DNA of 30,012 nt, taken from a virus. Both the position numbers and the translations under genes were made by a program. Location of the stretch: the UHGV virus genome UHGV-0299922, one strand, 5' to 3'. Shown one piece after another: positions 216-5,868 of this stretch. Under the pieces are notes generated by a model. That model saw nothing but the letters and a program-made list of their open reading frames with translations. It had not been told where the DNA came from and searched no databases. How positions within the stretch are numbered: position 1 is the first letter of the stretch; the number at the start of each line of letters is the position of its first letter.

Positions 216-1313
216 TTAGAACTGGTAAACCAGACCTACAGCAACGATGTCATCAGTGCTTACACCGAGTGCTTTAGTGAAGTCATTTTTGTCAAGCAGG
301 TTGATTTTGTAATCAACGAAAGTAGACATATTTTTGTTGAAGTAATAGGTTGCACCTACATCAACATATTTGACTAAGTCCTGATCGCCCCATACTCCAA
401 GATCCTTACCTTTAGATTGCAGGTAAGCAACGGACGGACGCAGACCGAAATCGAACTGATATTGTGCAACAGCTTCGAAGTTTTGGGCTTTATTAGCAAC
501 GAAGTGATCAGCAAATACAGTCATATTCTGGGTTTCAGAATAGGTAGTGGCCAGGTAAATGTTGTTAGCGTCATATTTCAGACCTGCGGCCCAAACTTCT
601 GCATTTTTACCGGAAGCAAATACTTCAGGAAGAACTTTCCCTGCATTAACTTGAGTGTCGGTACGATCAGATTTCGCATAAGTTGCACCGATACCGAATC
701 CTTCGTATTCATAGGTAGCAGAGAAACCGAAGCCATCACCGTTACCTTCGGTGTAGTTATCGAAATCGCTACGATCGTTTTTGCCTTGGTACTGAGCAGC
801 AAAGTTCAGACCATCAACCAGACCAAAGAAGTCGTTGTTACGATAGGTTGCAACACCAGTTGCACGTTGAGTCATGAACACGTCGGTTTGAGTCCAAGTG
901 TCACCACCGAATTCTGGCAGGACGTCAGTCCACGCACCGATGTCGTATGCTACACCGTAGTTACGGCCGTAATCGATGGAGCCGTAGTCACCGAATTTCA
1001 GGCCAGCGAAGGCAAGACGGGTTTTATCTTTGGAGGAACCTTGAGATTCAGCGCGGTTGCCTTTGAATTCATATTCCCACTGACCGAAACCAGTCAGTTG
1101 ATCGTTGATTTGGGTTTCACCTTTGAAGCCAAGACGGGCATAAGTAGTATCACCATCATCTGCATCATTAGAGGAGAAGTAGTGCTTAGCATTAACTTTC
1201 CCGTACAGATCCAGCTTGTTACTGTCTTTATTATAAATTTCAGCTGCCTGAGCAGACATCGCCATCAGTACTGATGCAGCTACAGCAGAAATTGCCACTG
1301 TTAATTTTTTCAT
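216..1313 (-). CDS. nmpC: OmpC/OmpF-family outer-membrane porin, prophage-encoded (NmpC/Lc-like), apparently intact
   Basis: ORF track 216..1373 minus; likely true start is the ATG at 1311-1313 ([23 protein letters not shown] signal peptide followed by [16 protein letters not shown]). Ends in the C-terminal Phe (..VGLVYQF) typical of OM beta-barrels. General porin motifs throughout. Position beside a phage-21-type lysis cassette matches the DLP12/PA-2 arrangement (recalled). Confidence 0.9.
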
Positions 1314-1529
1314 CGTGAGCCCTTTTTTTGAACTATTATTAAAAAATGATGTCACTGCGCGATAAATATTCATCTAATCAATGTGATTATTTCAAGATGT
1401 AAGTTTTGGTTTCTCGTTTGATTTGTGAAGTAGATCTCTATTTTTATCTGAACTTTTTTCTATCGAATCCTATTCATGGCTCTTGGCTGAATAAAAATAA
1501 ATCTATTAGCCAATTTATATTAATGGCTG

Positions 1530-1560
1530 TTATTTATAAGTGCTCTATAATTTGAAGGTT
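1530..1560 (+). promoter_or_regulatory. Candidate late promoter (pR'-like); -10 hexamer TATAAT at 1546-1551, weak -35
   Basis: Perfect TATAAT about 190 nt upstream of the tR'-like terminator, giving a short leader RNA comparable to lambda 6S RNA. No convincing -35. Placement is inference only. Confidence 0.25.
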
Positions 1561-1742
1561 CAATTTAAACCGGCTAAAAATAACACTGGAAATTATTTGT
1601 TGGTTATTTGTTGAAATTTGCTTATGTATTTGTAGTGGTGTTTTCAATACTCGGTAGCATTCTCGCAAATATCATTTAGTGGTTTACGTACGTAAAAAAT
1701 TGGTTATGCTGTTAAGAGTGGTTACTTCGTCACACAGCTTAA

Positions 1743-1773
1743 ACCCGCCGTCGAGCGGGTTTTTCCATTTTTT
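1743..1773 (+). terminator. Intrinsic terminator upstream of the holin gene (tR'-like)
   Basis: GC stem acccgc-cgtcga-gcgggt followed by ttttccatttttt on the plus strand, about 110 nt before the holin start. Confidence 0.5.
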
Positions 1774-1885
1774 GAGTCTCGATATTAGCTGATAACCCAA
1801 TACCTGAGTTATTCACTGACTCCGAGTCTGTTACGTTTCGTAGTATTCCCTCAATTTACACCCGCTTTGTCTGCGAGGTGGGGTT

Positions 1886-2101
1886 ATGAAATCCATGGAT
1901 AAGTTAACAACGGGTGTCGCCTATGGCACCTCAGCAGGTAGTGCCGGGTACTGGTTTTTACAGCTGCTAGATAAAGTCACGCCCTCACAGTGGGCGGCAA
2001 TTGGAGTGCTGGGTAGCCTGGTATTTGGCCTGCTGACGTACCTGACAAACCTTTATTTCAAGATTAAAGAAGATAAGCGCAAGGCTGCGAGAGGTGAATA
2101 A
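1886..2101 (+). CDS. S: Class II holin (pinholin), phage 21 S-type, with dual-start motif
   Basis: 71 aa, [26 protein letters not shown]..., two predicted TM segments and a charged C-terminus ([13 protein letters not shown]). Met1 and Met4 give the classic holin/antiholin dual start. Strongly resembles S21/EssD as I recall it. Confidence 0.9.
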
Positions 2102-2598
2102 TGCCTCCATCATTACGAAAAGCCGTTGCTGCTGCTATTGGTGGCGGAGCAATTGCTATAGCATCAGTGTTAATCACTGGCCCAAGTGGTAACGATGGTC
2201 TGGAAGGTGTCAGCTACATACCATACAAAGATATTGTTGGTGTATGGACTGTATGTCACGGGCATACAGGAAAAGACATCATGCTCGGTAAAACGTATAC
2301 CAAAGCAGAATGCAAAGCCCTCCTGAATAAAGACCTTGCCACGGTCGCCAGACAAATTAACCCGTACATAAAAGTTGATATACCGGAAACAACGCGCGGC
2401 GCTCTTTACTCGTTCGTCTACAACGTGGGTGCTGGCAATTTCAGAACATCGACGCTTCTTCGCAAAATAAACCACGGTGATATCAAAGGCGCATGTGATC
2501 AGCTACGGCGCTGGACATACGCTGGCGGTAATCAATGGAAAGGACTGATGACTCGCCGTGAGATTGAGCGTGAAGTCTGTTTGTGGGGGAAACAATGA
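2101..2598 (+). CDS. R: SAR (signal-anchor-release) endolysin, lysozyme family (R21-like)
   Basis: 165 aa; Gly/Ala-rich weakly hydrophobic N-terminal segment ([18 protein letters not shown]) typical of SAR domains, followed by a lysozyme-like domain with Glu/Asp/Thr spaced as in R21-type enzymes. ATGA start/stop overlap with the holin gene. Confidence 0.9.
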
Positions 2599-3062
2599 GC
2601 AGAGTAACCGCGATTATCTCCGCTCTGGTTATCTGCATCATCGTCTGCCTGTCATGGGCTGTTAATCATTACCGTGATAACGCCATTACCTACAAAGCCC
2701 AGCGCGACAAAAATGTCAGAGAACTGAAGCTGGCGAACGCGGCAATTACTGACATGCAGATGCGTCAGCGTGATGTTGCTGCGCTCGATGCAAAATACAC
2801 GAAGGAGTTAGCTGATGCGAAAGCTGAAAATGATGCTCTTCTGCGGAAGCTTGATAATGGTGGCAGGGTGCTCGTCAAAGGAAAATGCCCTGTGCCATCC
2901 TCTGCCGAAACCTCCAGCGCCTCCGACATGGGCAATGATGCCACCGTCGAACTCTCTCCAGTTGCTGGACGAAACGTTCTCGATATCCGGGACGGAATTA
3001 TCCGCGACCAAACAGCACTGAGAACGCTTCAGGAATACATTAGGACGCAATGCCTTCGATGA
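2595..3062 (+). CDS. Rz: Rz inner-membrane spanin (i-spanin)
   Basis: ATG at 2595 overlaps the endolysin stop (ATGA). N-terminal TM segment ([20 protein letters not shown]), coiled-coil-like periplasmic domain, ends ..[11 protein letters not shown] track extends upstream to a GTG at 2583. Confidence 0.9.
2815..3021 (+). CDS. Rz1: Rz1 outer-membrane lipoprotein spanin (o-spanin), embedded in the +1 frame of Rz
   Basis: 68 aa; signal peptide with lipobox ([18 protein letters not shown]|C), proline-rich mature part ([11 protein letters not shown]). Strong SD aaggag 9 nt upstream of the ATG. Wholly inside Rz in another frame. Confidence 0.85.
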
Positions 3063-3236
3063 TAGCGATAATTTTACTCATCATCCTTCACATCTGGCTC
3101 TGTAGACAGGGTGGTGATCACTTCTGGAGTAAATCCAGATTAAACATCTCATTGCTGATGCTTGATATTGAGCATCTGGCGCGCAGTAAGGGGCTGCGTT
3201 GAGATAAGAGCCAGTTCATTACAAATACCAGGATTT

Positions 3237-3262
3237 AGCCTCGCATTCGCGGGGCTTTTTAT
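3237..3262 (+). terminator. Intrinsic terminator after the lysis cassette
   Basis: agcctcgc-attc-gcggggct followed by ttttta, about 175 nt downstream of the Rz stop. Confidence 0.5.
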
Positions 3263-3404
3263 ATCTGAATTTCACAGCGCATCTCACGCGCATATTAACG
3301 AGAGCCTTTCAGTAAGCGAGCCTGAGAAATGCCGTTATAGGTGGCGACCTCTCTCGGGCGGCTTTTCTGTGAGACAGGCTCACTTTCTAAAAGGTAAAGA
3401 CGCT

Positions 3405-3929
3405 ATGAATAATCATTCAGTTATTCCAGCCTTCGACTTCCGAGAAATGGTGCAAGCCAAAAACGGAGAGGTTGTTACCACATCCAGAAAAATTGCCAAG
3501 TACTTCGGCAAGCGACACGGTGATGTTCTCAGGAAAATCGAGCAGGTTAAGGCTGATTGCTCGCGTGAGTTTAGCCAACGCAATTTTGCGTCGGCTGATT
3601 ATATCGATGAGCAGGGCAAGGTTCGCCCGATGTACAGCCTGACGAAAGATGGCTGGATCATGGTTGTGATGGGGTTCACCGGGAAAGCTGCTGCGGCAAT
3701 CAAGGAGAGCTATATCGCAGCATTCAACTGGATGGCAGAACAACTGAGCCGCCGCATGGCAATTGGCGAAGAAATGCAGCACCGCTACGCCATCAAAGAA
3801 ACACGCTCAAAGCTGAAAGGTACGATCGGCAGTCGGTTAATGAACGAACGGAAGAAAGAGAAGCGTGTCCTGGCTGTCGAGCATGAATACATCTTGCAGG
3901 TGACACAGCCTGAACTGCTGATTAATTGA
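3405..3929 (+). CDS. Rha-family phage regulatory protein (ORF6N/pRha-like)
   Basis: Start chosen at ATG 3405 (SD aaagg upstream); the ORF-track extension from 3162 runs through the terminator hairpin. Motifs SRKIAKYFGKRHGDVLRKIEQ and SLTKDGWIMVVMGFTGKAAAAIKESYIAAFNWM resemble the Rha signature as I recall it. Confidence 0.6.
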   Translation: MNNHSVIPAFDFREMVQAKNGEVVTTSRKIAKYFGKRHGDVLRKIEQVKADCSREFSQRNFASADYIDEQGKVRPMYSLTKDGWIMVVMGFTGKAAAAIKESYIAAFNWMAEQLSRRMAIGEEMQHRYAIKETRSKLKGTIGSRLMNERKKEKRVLAVEHEYILQVTQPELLIN

Positions 3930-4231
3930 AGATGTCATTACAAAGCCTATCTACGGGGGGCTTGATAATGGCTTATACCCTGCACGGGATAACTTAACTG
4001 ATATCCCTTTTAACGGATAAAGGTATTCAAGCCTGACACATCATGCGCTGTATCGTCGCCGTATTCCCGCATTAACCATGACCGTAGCCCGACGGGGAAT
4101 TCCTTCTGCGTGAGTGTGCGGGAATAATCAAAAACGATGCACACCGGGTTATTAACGCGTCAACTGAACGCGGGGTTGCTCTTCATGTCAGCCAGTCCGG
4201 TGCAGGGGTAGAAGAAACCGGACGTTATGGT

Positions 4232-4642
4232 TTAGTGTGGAAACATTTGTGATGTGCTCTGTATGTTTTCAGTAAAGAGTAATGAATTATCAAAGGTATA
4301 GTAATATCTTTTTTGTTCATGGATATTTGTAACCCACCGAAAAACTCCTGCTTTAGCAAGGTTTCTTCTGTATTCCTGAAATGTGATCTCTCTGGATTTC
4401 AGCTTATTAGAGGTCGTTTCTATAAGATGCCTATCCTTTGAAAATTTGACAGACACAATGTTTTTTAGGCCCTTTAATAACACTGTATTATCATTTTTTA
4501 ATACAATATGAACATTCTCTGTGGCTAAATAGTAAATGTAATGTGAGACATTGTGACGTTTTAGCTCAGAATAAAACCATTGATAGTTTAAATCGTTTCG
4601 AACTTTATCAAATATTTGTTTAAAAATGACTACCTGATCCAT
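4232..4642 (-). CDS. Hypothetical prophage protein, DUF1398 (YbcV/YdfO)-like; AT-rich cargo gene
   Basis: ORF track 4232..4684; preferred start is the ATG at 4640-4642 (MDQVVIFKQ..) with SD ggaagg 7 nt upstream, giving 136 aa. Markedly AT-rich compared with flanking DNA. Family assignment is from memory of prophage YbcV-like proteins at the equivalent DLP12 position. Confidence 0.55.
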
Positions 4643-4700
4643 AGATAAACCTTCCATGTGATATGAGGGGGGCGTAGTCTGCACGATTATCTAAATTGCT

Positions 4701-4934
4701 TCAATCTGGTCTGATCTGTTTTCTGAGCAATTCAGTAATGTCACTCTTTTCTTTGTTTGCTTCAGGAGAAACTCTTTTTTCTGAGCACAGTCTCCGGCGG
4801 CAGGCTTCAATGACCCAGGCTGAGAAATTCCCGGACCCTTTTTGATCAAGAGCGATGTTAATTTGTTCAATCATTTGGTTAGGAAAGCGGATGTTGCGGG
4901 TTGTTGTTCTGCGGGTTCTGTTCTTCGTTGACAT
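4701..4934 (-). CDS. Small ribbon-helix-helix (Arc/MetJ/CopG-like) DNA-binding protein, putative
   Basis: 77 aa; basic N-terminus (MSTKNRTRRTTTRNIRFP) followed by the RHH-like pattern NIRFPNQMIEQINIALDQKGSGNFSAWVIEA. Lies 58 bp upstream of the DUF1398-like gene on the same strand. Confidence 0.45.
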   Translation of the reverse strand: MSTKNRTRRTTTRNIRFPNQMIEQINIALDQKGSGNFSAWVIEACRRRLCSEKRVSPEANKEKSDITELLRKQIRPD

Positions 4935-5099
4935 GAGGTTGTCCCGTATTCAGTGTCGCTGATTTGTATTGTCTGAAGTTGTTTTTACGTTAAGTTGATG
5001 CAGATCAATTAATACGATACCTGCGTCATAATTGATTATTTGACGTGGTTTGATGGCGTAGATGCACGTTGTGACATGCAGATGATAATCATTATCATT

Positions 5100-5322
5100 T
5101 TGCGGGTCCTTTCCGGCGATCCGACAGGTTACGGGGCGGCGACCTCGCGGGTTTTCGCTATTTATGAAAATTTTCCGGTTTAAGGCGTTTCCGTTCTTCT
5201 TCGTCATAACTTAATGTTTTTATTTAAAATACCCTCTGAAAAGAAAGGAAACGACAGGTGCTGAAAGCGAGCTTTTTGGCCTCTGTCGTTTCCTTTCTCT
5301 GTTTTTGTCCGTGGAATGAACA
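5100..5322 (+). other. cos region (cosQ - cosN - cosB) of lambda type
   Basis: ...ccgacaggttacg|gggcggcgacctcgcgggttttcgctatttatg... matches the lambda right-end/left-end junction as I remember it. cosB is the stretch between cosN and the Nu1 start. Confidence 0.9.
5134..5145 (+). other. cosN 12-nt cohesive end (GGGCGGCGACCT)
   Basis: Exact match to the lambda cohesive-end sequence, directly following ..AGGTTACG. Confidence 0.9.
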
Positions 5323-5842
5323 ATGGAAGTCAACAAAAAGCAGCTGGCTGACATTTTCGGTGCGAGTATCCGTACCATTCAGAACTGGCAGGAACAGGGA
5401 ATGCCCGTTCTGCGAGGCGGTGGCAAGGGTAATGAGGTGCTTTATGACTCTGCCGCCGTCATAAAATGGTATGCCGAAAGGGATGCTGAAATTGAGAACG
5501 AAAAGCTGCGCCGGGAAGTTGAAGAACTGCGGCAGGCCAGCGAGACAGATCTCCAGCCAGGGACTATTGAGTACGAACGCCATCGACTTACGCGTGCGCA
5601 GGCCGACGCACAGGAACTGAAGAATGCCAGAGACTCCGCTGAAGTGGTGGAAACCGCATTCTGTACTTTCGTGTTGTCGCGGATCGCAGGTGAAATTGCC
5701 AGTATTCTCGACGGGCTCCCCCTGTCGGTGCAGCGGCGTTTTCCGGAACTGGAAAACCGACATGTTGATTTCCTGAAACGGGATATCATCAAAGCCATGA
5801 ACAAAGCAGCCGCGCTGGATGAACTGATACCGGGGTTGCTGA

Positions 5843-5868
<26 letters not shown>
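5323..5868 (+). CDS. nu1: Terminase small subunit Nu1
   Basis: 181 aa, MEVNKKQLADIFGASIRTIQNWQEQGMPVLRGGGKGNEVLYDSAAVIKWYAERD..., essentially identical to lambda gpNu1 as recalled. Confidence 0.97.

Follow-up and report, generated by a model that had tools for sequence, protein, structure and literature searches.

What occupies the interval between the lysis genes and cos in the viral genome UHGV-0299922 (30,012 nucleotides in full length, hereafter the window), and does it hold cargo with a function of its own? Three poorly characterised genes lie there, and the initial annotation saw them as a separately acquired accessory locus in the place that bor takes in lambda. Our reading is more ordinary. 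With a probability of roughly 60%, we regard this interval as the right-end accessory region of a lambda-family Escherichia coli prophage, composed of three modules that assort independently. All three genes are phage passenger genes, namely a rha gene of the P22 type and two genes, of the ydfO and ynfO type, that are also found in lambda.

Gene content between Rz and cos

The three open reading frames (3405-3929 on the plus strand, 4232-4642 and 4701-4934 on the minus strand) were found in the ORF list just as first proposed, and RefSeq has the same three genes with identical boundaries at an E. coli locus of 99.8% identity. Their convergent layout is confirmed as well. Upstream lies the Rz spanin gene (2595..3062, plus strand; PF03245 Phage_lysis, E 1.4e-30; named 'lysis protein' in RefSeq), which ends the lysis cassette and has an Rz1-like lipoprotein ORF (2815-3021) embedded in it. 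The end of Rz is overlapped by orf50 (3050..3202, plus strand; RefSeq CDS WP_001139682.1), which has 50 codons, encodes a hydrophobic N-terminus and matches phrog_11822 over its full length (E 2e-37). On the right, the locus is bounded by cosN (GGGCGGCGACCT; 5134..5145, plus strand), just beyond position 5130; its sequence was read directly and its placement follows the cos annotation of DE3. An 85-codon ORF across cos (4950-5207) was dismissed because it spans cosN, and a permissive Rfam scan of 1300-5400 gave chance-level miRNA and leader matches only.

The packaging genes of the prophage look intact (full-length Nu1, A, W and portal), and the Q gene lies upstream in the identical locus. Nor is the arrangement rare, as matches in 113 E. 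coli genomes span 80% or more of the 2.3-kb query, the chromosomal copies being 99.5-99.8% identical among the matches listed. Escherichia phage PhiR70_1 (PV340577.1) contains the entire 2.3-kb arrangement at 98.3% identity and shows no substantive difference. The PhiR70_1 and chromosomal records label the genes as hypothetical, Rha family, DUF1398 or YlcI/YnfO family. All three genes are indeed functionally uncharacterised, as had been claimed, and ydfO and ynfO were still listed as such in the 2024 survey of the E. coli y-ome (PMC11551758).

A probable late regulator gene in the place of bor

The plus-strand gene (3405..3929) lies in the late operon and encodes a Rha-family regulator of 174 amino acids, homologous to the product of P22 rha (orf201). 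It matches PF09669 Phage_pRha at 99.1 bits (cut-off 29.9), TIGR02681 at 113.8 bits (cut-off 45.95) and phrog_518 with E 4e-78, and shares 37% identity with P22 Rha over 83% coverage (tblastn, E 9e-17). The profile search bears out the proposed Rha-like identity and also the DUF1398-like one of the neighbouring minus-strand gene (PF07166), both far above their cut-offs. A sequence search against solved structures returned nothing usable for Rha or YnfO.

The terminator announced ahead of rha is present in the orf50/rha interval as an intrinsic terminator (3237..3262, plus strand) with an 8-bp stem of which six pairs are G-C, a 4-nt loop and a TTTTTAT tail. It dominates the RNA fold around the rha leader (-66.6 kcal/mol for 3195-3410, z = -2.29 vs shuffles), and a long hairpin in the leader itself (3304..3395, plus strand) ends about 10 nt 5' of the start codon. 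A TTG-started extension of Rha to 255 codons was dismissed, as it crosses the terminator. Upstream of rha, we found no sigma-70-like promoter even at relaxed thresholds; as for promoters of the moron type, weak promoter-like sites occur on the minus strand only. The G+C content of rha (49%) does not set it apart from the flanking genes.

Our best guess for rha is a regulator gene of the late operon. Its product would be a DNA-binding regulator of the P22/phi80 type that, lacking a recognisable promoter of its own, is probably made only in lytic growth, when Q-modified RNA polymerase from pR' would read through the 3237-3262 terminator. Rha may then be dispensable, working as a late regulator or in the manner of an antirepressor. 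According to the literature cited in PMC4936722, rha was defined genetically by inhibition of phage growth in IHF-deficient hosts, and its expression is described there as IHF-controlled. The P22 and phi80 genes are described with upstream IHF sites, whereas no IHF consensus precedes rha here; the sole match in the window falls within ydfO and is no better than chance.

What became of bor can still be read from the adjacent DNA. At 4044..4231, a remnant of the lambda sequence between bor and lambdap78 persists (about 80% identity to lambda), and within it the equivalent of the bor promoter (4058-4084, minus strand) has degenerated to CGGTCA-N15-TACGGC, compared with TGGACA-N15-TACAAT in lambda and HK629. 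The module of orf50, terminator and rha has replaced lambda's bor and inactivated its promoter. In the locus comparison, orf50 accompanies the present Rz allele with or without Rha. The claim that the bor space holds all three ORFs must be narrowed accordingly: lambda itself has DUF1398 and YlcI-like genes, and only bor and its promoter were replaced.

The two minus-strand genes

The ydfO-type gene (4232..4642, minus strand; 136 amino acids, 31% G+C) encodes a DUF1398 protein that matches PF07166 at 157.3 bits (cut-off 22) over profile positions 1-119 of 119. It differs from K-12 Qin YdfO at 2 of 135 aligned residues and has the fold of this solved family member (PDB 2HH8). The AT-rich stretch is no chance fluctuation: at 31.1% G+C vs a window mean of 53.5% (sd 6.6, 411-nt windows), the gene falls in the lowest 0.5% of windows, and the 30 kb hold just one other such island. 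As a composition test for morons, this speaks for ydfO; rha does not stand out, and ynfO (44% G+C) is only marginally unlike its flanking genes. The structural neighbours of YdfO include none that points to an activity, and the protein matches no known toxin fold or family.

Some databases nevertheless name a function. The label 'head protein', attached to phrog_413 and found in RefSeq lambda-family records (e.g., NC_001416.1, NC_042057.1), and 'putative envelope protein' in older records would make YdfO a virion or envelope component, a reading to which we give practically no credence. The gene lies on the strand opposite to the late operon and is AT-rich; the fold resembles no capsid protein; and DUF1398 is missing from most lambdoid phages (present in 43 of 50,697 phage records). 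Moreover, divergent DUF1398 genes (25-50% identity) are solitary in chromosomal contexts far from phage genes, and the names look like propagated annotation. One of these solitary genes in K-12 is presumably ycgX.

In our reading, ydfO is a stand-alone AT-rich gene, and its product is a small protein of the cytoplasm whose orphan fold, (alpha-alpha-beta-beta-beta)x2, is internally duplicated. In the prophage, this gene would be transcribed against the direction of the late operon, and is probably silenced by H-NS and released under stress. K-12 ydfO is induced 12- to 116-fold by an ionic liquid (PMC4077768) and responds to DicC. Overexpression of T4 MotB raises DLP12 ybcV/ybcW more than 1000-fold (PMC7827196), which the title of that paper ascribes to altered H-NS-dependent repression, although the increase may instead reflect prophage induction. 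YdfO is also said to raise oxidative-stress resistance (PMC4077768); we traced this statement to Wang et al. 2010, whose main text speaks of the CPS-53 protein YfdO and nowhere mentions ydfO, so that it appears to be a citation mix-up.

The second gene, of the ynfO type (4701..4934, minus strand), encodes a DUF3950 protein of 77 amino acids with a probable ribbon-helix-helix (RHH) N-terminal domain (residues ~12-55) and a variable C-terminal tail. We take it to be K-12 YnfO. It matches PF13132 at 74.8 bits (cut-off 25) and NF041551 at 35.7 bits (cut-off 30), its closest database relatives are 95-96% identical and named YlcI/YnfO family, and the segment GNFSAW, which contains the conserved NFS motif, is present and nearly invariant. 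In the structural model, an extended segment precedes helices 19-32 and 37-55, with a GSGNFS turn; as the model is a monomer, the intersubunit sheet is not visible in it. The nearest low-rmsd neighbours are RHH antitoxins. The earlier designation as a small RHH protein is plausible, and the N-terminus is probably of this type, although the Pfam RHH families gave no match at E up to 0.1. YnfO is conserved at a dN/dS of ~0.09; its N-terminal domain (~50 residues) is under strong purifying selection, and the tail is the non-conserved part.

Between ynfO and cos, two symmetric elements can be discerned. An inverted repeat, ATCAATTAATACG-N7-CGTCATAATTGAT (5004..5036), lies 70-100 bp upstream of ynfO beside a weak -10-like hexamer (5035-5040, minus strand) and is a candidate operator. 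A perfect palindrome, ATGATAAT-C-ATTATCAT (5082..5098), follows in a stretch that is 97% identical to lambda. Scanning for sigma-70 promoters of ynfO and ydfO yielded nothing convincing, with 8-of-12 matches only. YnfO would be a small DNA-binding transcriptional regulator, probably RHH, acting at its own upstream inverted repeat and possibly on its own gene. Our best guess for both minus-strand genes is that they belong to the prophage state and run against late transcription. The expression data come from K-12 homologues in cryptic prophages, where the ybcW and ylcI transcripts overlap in most RNA-seq sets (PMC12288877).

Had the two genes formed a functional pair, a type II toxin-antitoxin system would come to mind, with YnfO as the RHH antitoxin encoded first and YdfO as the toxin second. 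The gene order and the 58-bp gap resemble such operons, the genes are kept 60-63 bp apart in 69 of 80 near-identical loci, and the antitoxin neighbours of the model are joined by a weak HicB-like PHROG match. Still, the pairing breaks down on co-occurrence (80 IMG/VR loci, phage records and chromosomal loci), and we rejected this very unlikely reading. DUF1398 occurs without DUF3950 and vice versa: next to another kind of terminase there is YdfO but no YnfO, over 100 phages have YnfO and lack YdfO (YnfO-like genes occur in 152 phage records vs 43 for DUF1398), and in an Stx2a phage a YnfO-like gene has the gap between Rz and terminase to itself. The divergent DUF1398 genes are not preceded by DUF3950 or any other small partner, and their standing alone argues against such a pair; in lambda and DLP12, an oppositely oriented ybcW sits between both genes. 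Likewise, the tail of YnfO that would bind the toxin is the part that is not conserved, YdfO was obtained in yields sufficient for an NMR structure (2HH8), and at least one genome has its DUF1398 gene interrupted by IS1. A 233-aa database protein that fuses DUF3950 and DUF1398 (P0001) was set aside as an artefact in which the TGA stop of ynfO is read as Trp; this allele has a C5 run instead of C6. In short, rha, ydfO and ynfO assort independently across phages.

Could at least one of them still be a moron for lysogenic conversion, anti-phage defence or superinfection exclusion? We consider this doubtful. The position in the Rz-cos gap, where lambda has bor, the AT-richness of ydfO and the orientation antisense to the late operon are what one would look for, cryptic-prophage homologues are expressed and respond to stress, and one phage-resistant APEC mutant lists loss of ydfO (PMC8711792), albeit as one among many changes. 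For the defence or exclusion function that had been suggested we found no evidence: a search of four proteins against PADLOC-DB v2 gave no match (the best, Csx23, is at chance level with E 0.013), and in the YdfO and YnfO sequences neither a signal peptide nor a membrane segment is evident that would fit surface exclusion. The sole functional claim found for YdfO is the apparent YfdO mix-up. To our knowledge, decades of lambda genetics have assigned no exclusion phenotype to the region.

A different role is suggested by the place of YnfO: in phages with differing packaging modules, its gene always lies between Rz and terminase and always runs opposite to the late genes. If YnfO were a small DNA-binding protein at cos, serving as an accessory factor in packaging or in the insulation of late transcription, this would explain its constant place by the packaging site. 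The different terminase types concerned (lambda Nu1/A, Stx2a phage), the repeat and palindrome between ynfO and cosN, and the purifying selection on the putative DNA-binding part fit such a role. We nonetheless hold it to be improbable, as cos adjacency may simply amount to tight physical linkage and, in phage 2B8, Rha adjoins cos and the genome end without ydfO or ynfO. Minimal cos fragments are enough for packaging, and we know of no essential lambda gene that maps to the region. In the Stx2a phage, the packaging module begins with a gene annotated 'Dnase'.

More broadly, there is a small chance that the YnfO-type protein, perhaps with YdfO, is an overlooked prophage-state factor with a real function, even in lambda. 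If so, YnfO might be a repressor or insulator at the cos-proximal inverted repeats that limits late-operon read-through; alternatively, the function might be a stress-released (H-NS-silenced) one in host modulation or phage exclusion.

Relation to P22, lambda and the K-12 prophages

To return to the reading that we prefer, each part of the right-end accessory region has a counterpart in a known system. In P22 (gene order 13-19-15/Rz1-rha-...-gene 3), rha occupies the identical slot on the late strand, between Rz/Rz1 and the small terminase gene, and its product has 201 amino acids vs 174 here. Checked by synteny, the Rha slot of the Rz-cos gap is this classical P22 arrangement, with no new occupant.

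The right end of lambda reads bor, lambdap78, lambdap79, an unannotated YlcI-like ORF and cos. It is 80% identical to window positions 4044-4717 and 97% to 4772-5400, and its cosN sequence is the same. The DUF1398 gene lambdap78 (78% amino-acid identity to the window protein) and the YlcI-like ORF of 64 codons beside cos have the same strands and order as in the window. Lambda differs in having bor with a functional-looking promoter, where the window has orf50, the terminator, rha and the degenerate promoter, and in a 613-bp insert with the ybcW-like lambdap79, a gene missing in the window; the insert replaces the C-terminal tail of YnfO (64 vs 77 amino acids). Older lambda records leave the YlcI/YnfO-type gene unannotated.

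In K-12 Qin (nohA-ynfO-ydfO), the order of Nu1-type gene, ynfO and ydfO is shared, with a gap of about 60 bp between the latter two. Loci of the Qin type (36 of 80) have neither Rha nor the present Rz within 4-5 kb past ydfO, whereas Rha, orf50 and Rz follow in the window. Judged by these sequence comparisons, the minus-strand genes are an ancestral right-end module, with homologues in lambda, Qin and DLP12, rather than the separately acquired cargo that had been supposed. The genes, their families, one structure and the arrangement are already known from K-12 (Qin, DLP12), lambda, P22 and thousands of E. coli genomes; the residual value of this locus lies in drawing attention to lambda's right end, which itself holds two conserved, functionally uncharacterised genes of the DUF1398 and YlcI/YnfO type.

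Gene content of the Rz-to-cos gap

The sequence is a lambda-family E. coli prophage, and its Rz-to-cos gap (3063-5130) is a real and correctly delineated feature. Upstream lie a porin gene (216-1373, minus), the holin gene (1886-2101), the lysozyme gene (2101-2598), and Rz (2595-3062, with an embedded Rz1-like ORF), and downstream follow cosN (GGGCGGCGACCT, 5134-5145), Nu1 (5323-5868; PF07471, E 1e-100), and then terminase A, W, and the portal gene. The three ORFs listed here by the initial annotation, exactly these, are borne out by ORF calling, profile searches, and the RefSeq annotation of a 99.8%-identical chromosome, which shows the same genes and boundaries plus orf50. The profile searches place all three in families with large margins over the cut-off, namely rha (3405-3929, plus) in the Rha family (PF09669 and TIGR02681), ydfO (4232-4642, minus) in DUF1398 (PF07166), and ynfO (4701-4934, minus) in DUF3950, the YlcI/YnfO family (PF13132 and NF041551). 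The terminator noted ahead of rha is present (3237-3262, rated good), as is the AT-rich stretch: the DUF1398 gene has 31.1% G+C versus a window mean of 53.5%, within the lowest 0.5% of 411-nt windows.

The 50-codon orf50 (3050-3202, plus) overlaps the Rz end and stop, encodes a hydrophobic N-terminus, and has its own PHROG (11822). It accompanies this Rz allele even without Rha, for example, in an E. albertii locus (L111, 92% identity), and its product is possibly a small membrane protein tied to lysis. Identical records label the porin gene "porin" or "OmpD." It has the Q antiterminator region on one side and the holin gene on the other and is encoded on the opposite strand, a classical lysogenic-conversion position. 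Nowhere in the window is the AT content higher than in the intergenic region upstream of this gene, within 1300-1700 (28-29% G+C).

The whole 2.3-kb arrangement occurs at a coverage of at least 80% in 113 of 5,426 complete E. coli genomes and at 98.3% identity in the temperate phage PhiR70_1. Several E. coli genomes (H34, H35, H49, H55) carry an IS3 or IS1 inside this region. The H49 insertion breaks the DUF1398 gene into two parts, so at least ydfO is dispensable in the prophage state. The view of the gap as a seat of uncharacterized functions is fair in general, but this instance belongs to a well-populated, already catalogued set of known families and adds nothing new in kind. The suggested role in defense or exclusion found no backing, as none of the locus genes matched a known defense system.

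Independence of the three genes

Judged by their distribution, rha, ydfO, and ynfO are not one system. Among 80 IMG/VR loci carrying the closest YdfO alleles, YnfO lies 60-63 bp upstream of YdfO in 69, and Rha is found in 23, 21 of which also show orf50 and Rz; another arrangement, Nu1-YnfO-YdfO without Rha or Rz in view, accounts for 36 of the 80. In six loci YnfO is missing, ybcW accompanies YdfO, and the terminase is a different one. The number of records per gene in a curated phage set also varies (DUF1398, 43; YnfO-like, 152; Rha-like, 635). In an Stx2a phage, a 68%-identical YnfO-like gene stands alone in the Rz-terminase gap, antisense to the late genes and adjoining a packaging module unlike lambda's, and phage 2B8 runs from Rz through Rha to the genome end, with both minus-strand genes absent. 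More distant DUF1398 genes (25-50% identity) stand alone in nonphage chromosomal neighborhoods, with no DUF3950 gene nearby; they include those of Citrobacter, Kluyvera, Pseudocitrobacter, and Salmonella diarizonae, as well as a K-12 locus at 1.21 Mb that we take to be ycgX.

A toxin-antitoxin pair of YnfO and YdfO is strongly disfavored because the modules are independent, ybcW is inserted between them in lambda, and the YnfO tail is not conserved. A 233-aa DUF3950-DUF1398 "fusion" (P0001, representing a database cluster) is a gene-calling artifact and not a natural fusion: the ynfO TGA stop was read as Trp, in an allele with an intergenic C5 run versus C6 in the window (4667-4672).

As for rha, it follows the terminator downstream of the Q-dependent late genes, and no promoter-like sequence was found upstream of it. 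On the simplest reading, rha would ride along in the late operon and, as in P22, depend on antiterminated transcription for its expression.

YdfO, YnfO, and a candidate operator

With a dN/dS of 0.20 against its lambda homolog lambdap78, YdfO is under purifying selection, and its fold points to no activity. Published expression evidence covers the K-12 homologs only. There, an ionic liquid induces ydfO 12- to 116-fold depending on growth phase (PMC4077768), and DicC induction elicits a response from four Qin genes, ydfO included. Most RNA-seq data sets show converging transcripts of ybcW and ylcI that overlap as a pair (PMC12288877), and overexpression of T4 MotB is reported to raise DLP12 ybcV and ybcW more than 1000-fold, which the title of that paper attributes to altered H-NS-dependent repression (PMC7827196). 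A 2024 listing still has ydfO and ynfO as uncharacterized (PMC11551758). The only functional claim we found, that oxidative-stress resistance increases when YdfO is overexpressed (PMC4077768, citing Wang et al. 2010), traces to a source (PMC3105296) that reports YfdO instead: its main text deals with YfdK, YfdO, and YfdS of CPS-53 and never names ydfO. This is probably a mix-up of gene names, which could propagate.

We consider the YnfO-type protein the most interesting residue of the locus. It is strongly constrained, with a dN/dS of 0.09 at a dS of 0.82 over the first 50 codons (against the Stx2a-phage allele), followed by an unconserved C-terminal tail. We take YnfO to be a small DNA-binding protein of the RHH type; its structure model shows an extended segment and then helices 19-32 and 37-55, with a GSGNFS turn between the two. 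Phages whose terminases differ repeatedly carry such genes next to the packaging site and antisense to the late operon, and apparently no study of this protein type has ever been made. Upstream of ynfO, a weak -10-like hexamer adjoins a 13-nt inverted repeat (5004-5036), which is, by inference only, a candidate operator. At 5082-5098, about 35 bp before cosN, is the perfect palindrome ATGATAAT-C-ATTATCAT. Both elements are inside a stretch with 97% overall identity to lambda, and we know of no function assigned to either.

Comparison with lambda, Qin, and P22

Homolog lists for this region are swollen with error-ridden variants by stray lambda segments. The lambda right end turns up in many "genomes" of unrelated taxa (L090-L127; 3.5-kb ENA contigs), among them Kitasatospora, Flavobacterium, Pedobacter, Cohnella, Bradyrhizobium, and Nanosynbacter, often as a contig of ~3.5 kb with Rz-bor-lambdap78-ybcW-ylcI. 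Contaminating lambda control DNA seems to be the source, and the likeliest candidate is a nanopore control amplicon of roughly 3.6 kb.

BLAST against the lambda copy DE3 gave three aligned blocks: 2595-2839 (Rz, 99%), 4044-4717 (from just below the bor promoter through lambdap78, 80%), and 4772-5400 (to cos and beyond, 97%). Two of the three locus genes are thus present in lambda itself. Lambdap78 ("putative envelope protein") is the DUF1398 homolog, and a 64-codon ORF ~200 bp from cos (2742-2936, minus, in L001; about lambda 48109-48303, complement) is the YlcI/YnfO homolog, near-identical to the window's YnfO over the first 48 residues. The latter is not annotated in the DE3 and HK629 records, J02459.1 has no annotated feature beneath the match, and newer phage records do carry it. 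For the DUF1398 gene, neither "head protein" (RefSeq lambda-family records, e.g., NC_001416.1 and NC_042057.1; phrog_413) nor the older "putative envelope protein" is supported by strand, composition, distribution, or fold.

Lambda differs by a 613-bp insert that carries the oppositely oriented, ybcW-like lambdap79; the insert takes the place of the YnfO-type C-terminal tail and is lacking in the window. Upstream of lambdap78, lambda retains a 3'-end remnant of a longer ynfO-type gene (TCAATCTGGTCTGA). In addition, the place taken by orf50, the terminator, and rha in the window is occupied by bor in lambda. The DNA bearing the bor promoter is kept in the window with decayed hexamers (TGGACA-N15-TACAAT to CGGTCA-N15-TACGGC), so only bor has been swapped. 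The initial annotation had all three ORFs occupying the bor space and took the AT-rich stretch at 4232-4690 to suggest separately acquired cargo; on these alignments, the DUF1398 and DUF3950 genes are instead the ancestral right-end module, not gained relative to lambda.

The 77-aa YnfO has its closest database relatives at 95-96% identity, named YlcI/YnfO family, of which K-12 YnfO is presumably the Qin member; one genome with a Qin-type layout (L086) shares the Nu1-ynfO-ydfO order. Rha is 37% identical to P22 Rha (orf201) over 83% of its length and occupies the same slot and strand, the P22 gene following 13-19-15/Rz1 and preceding the small terminase gene.
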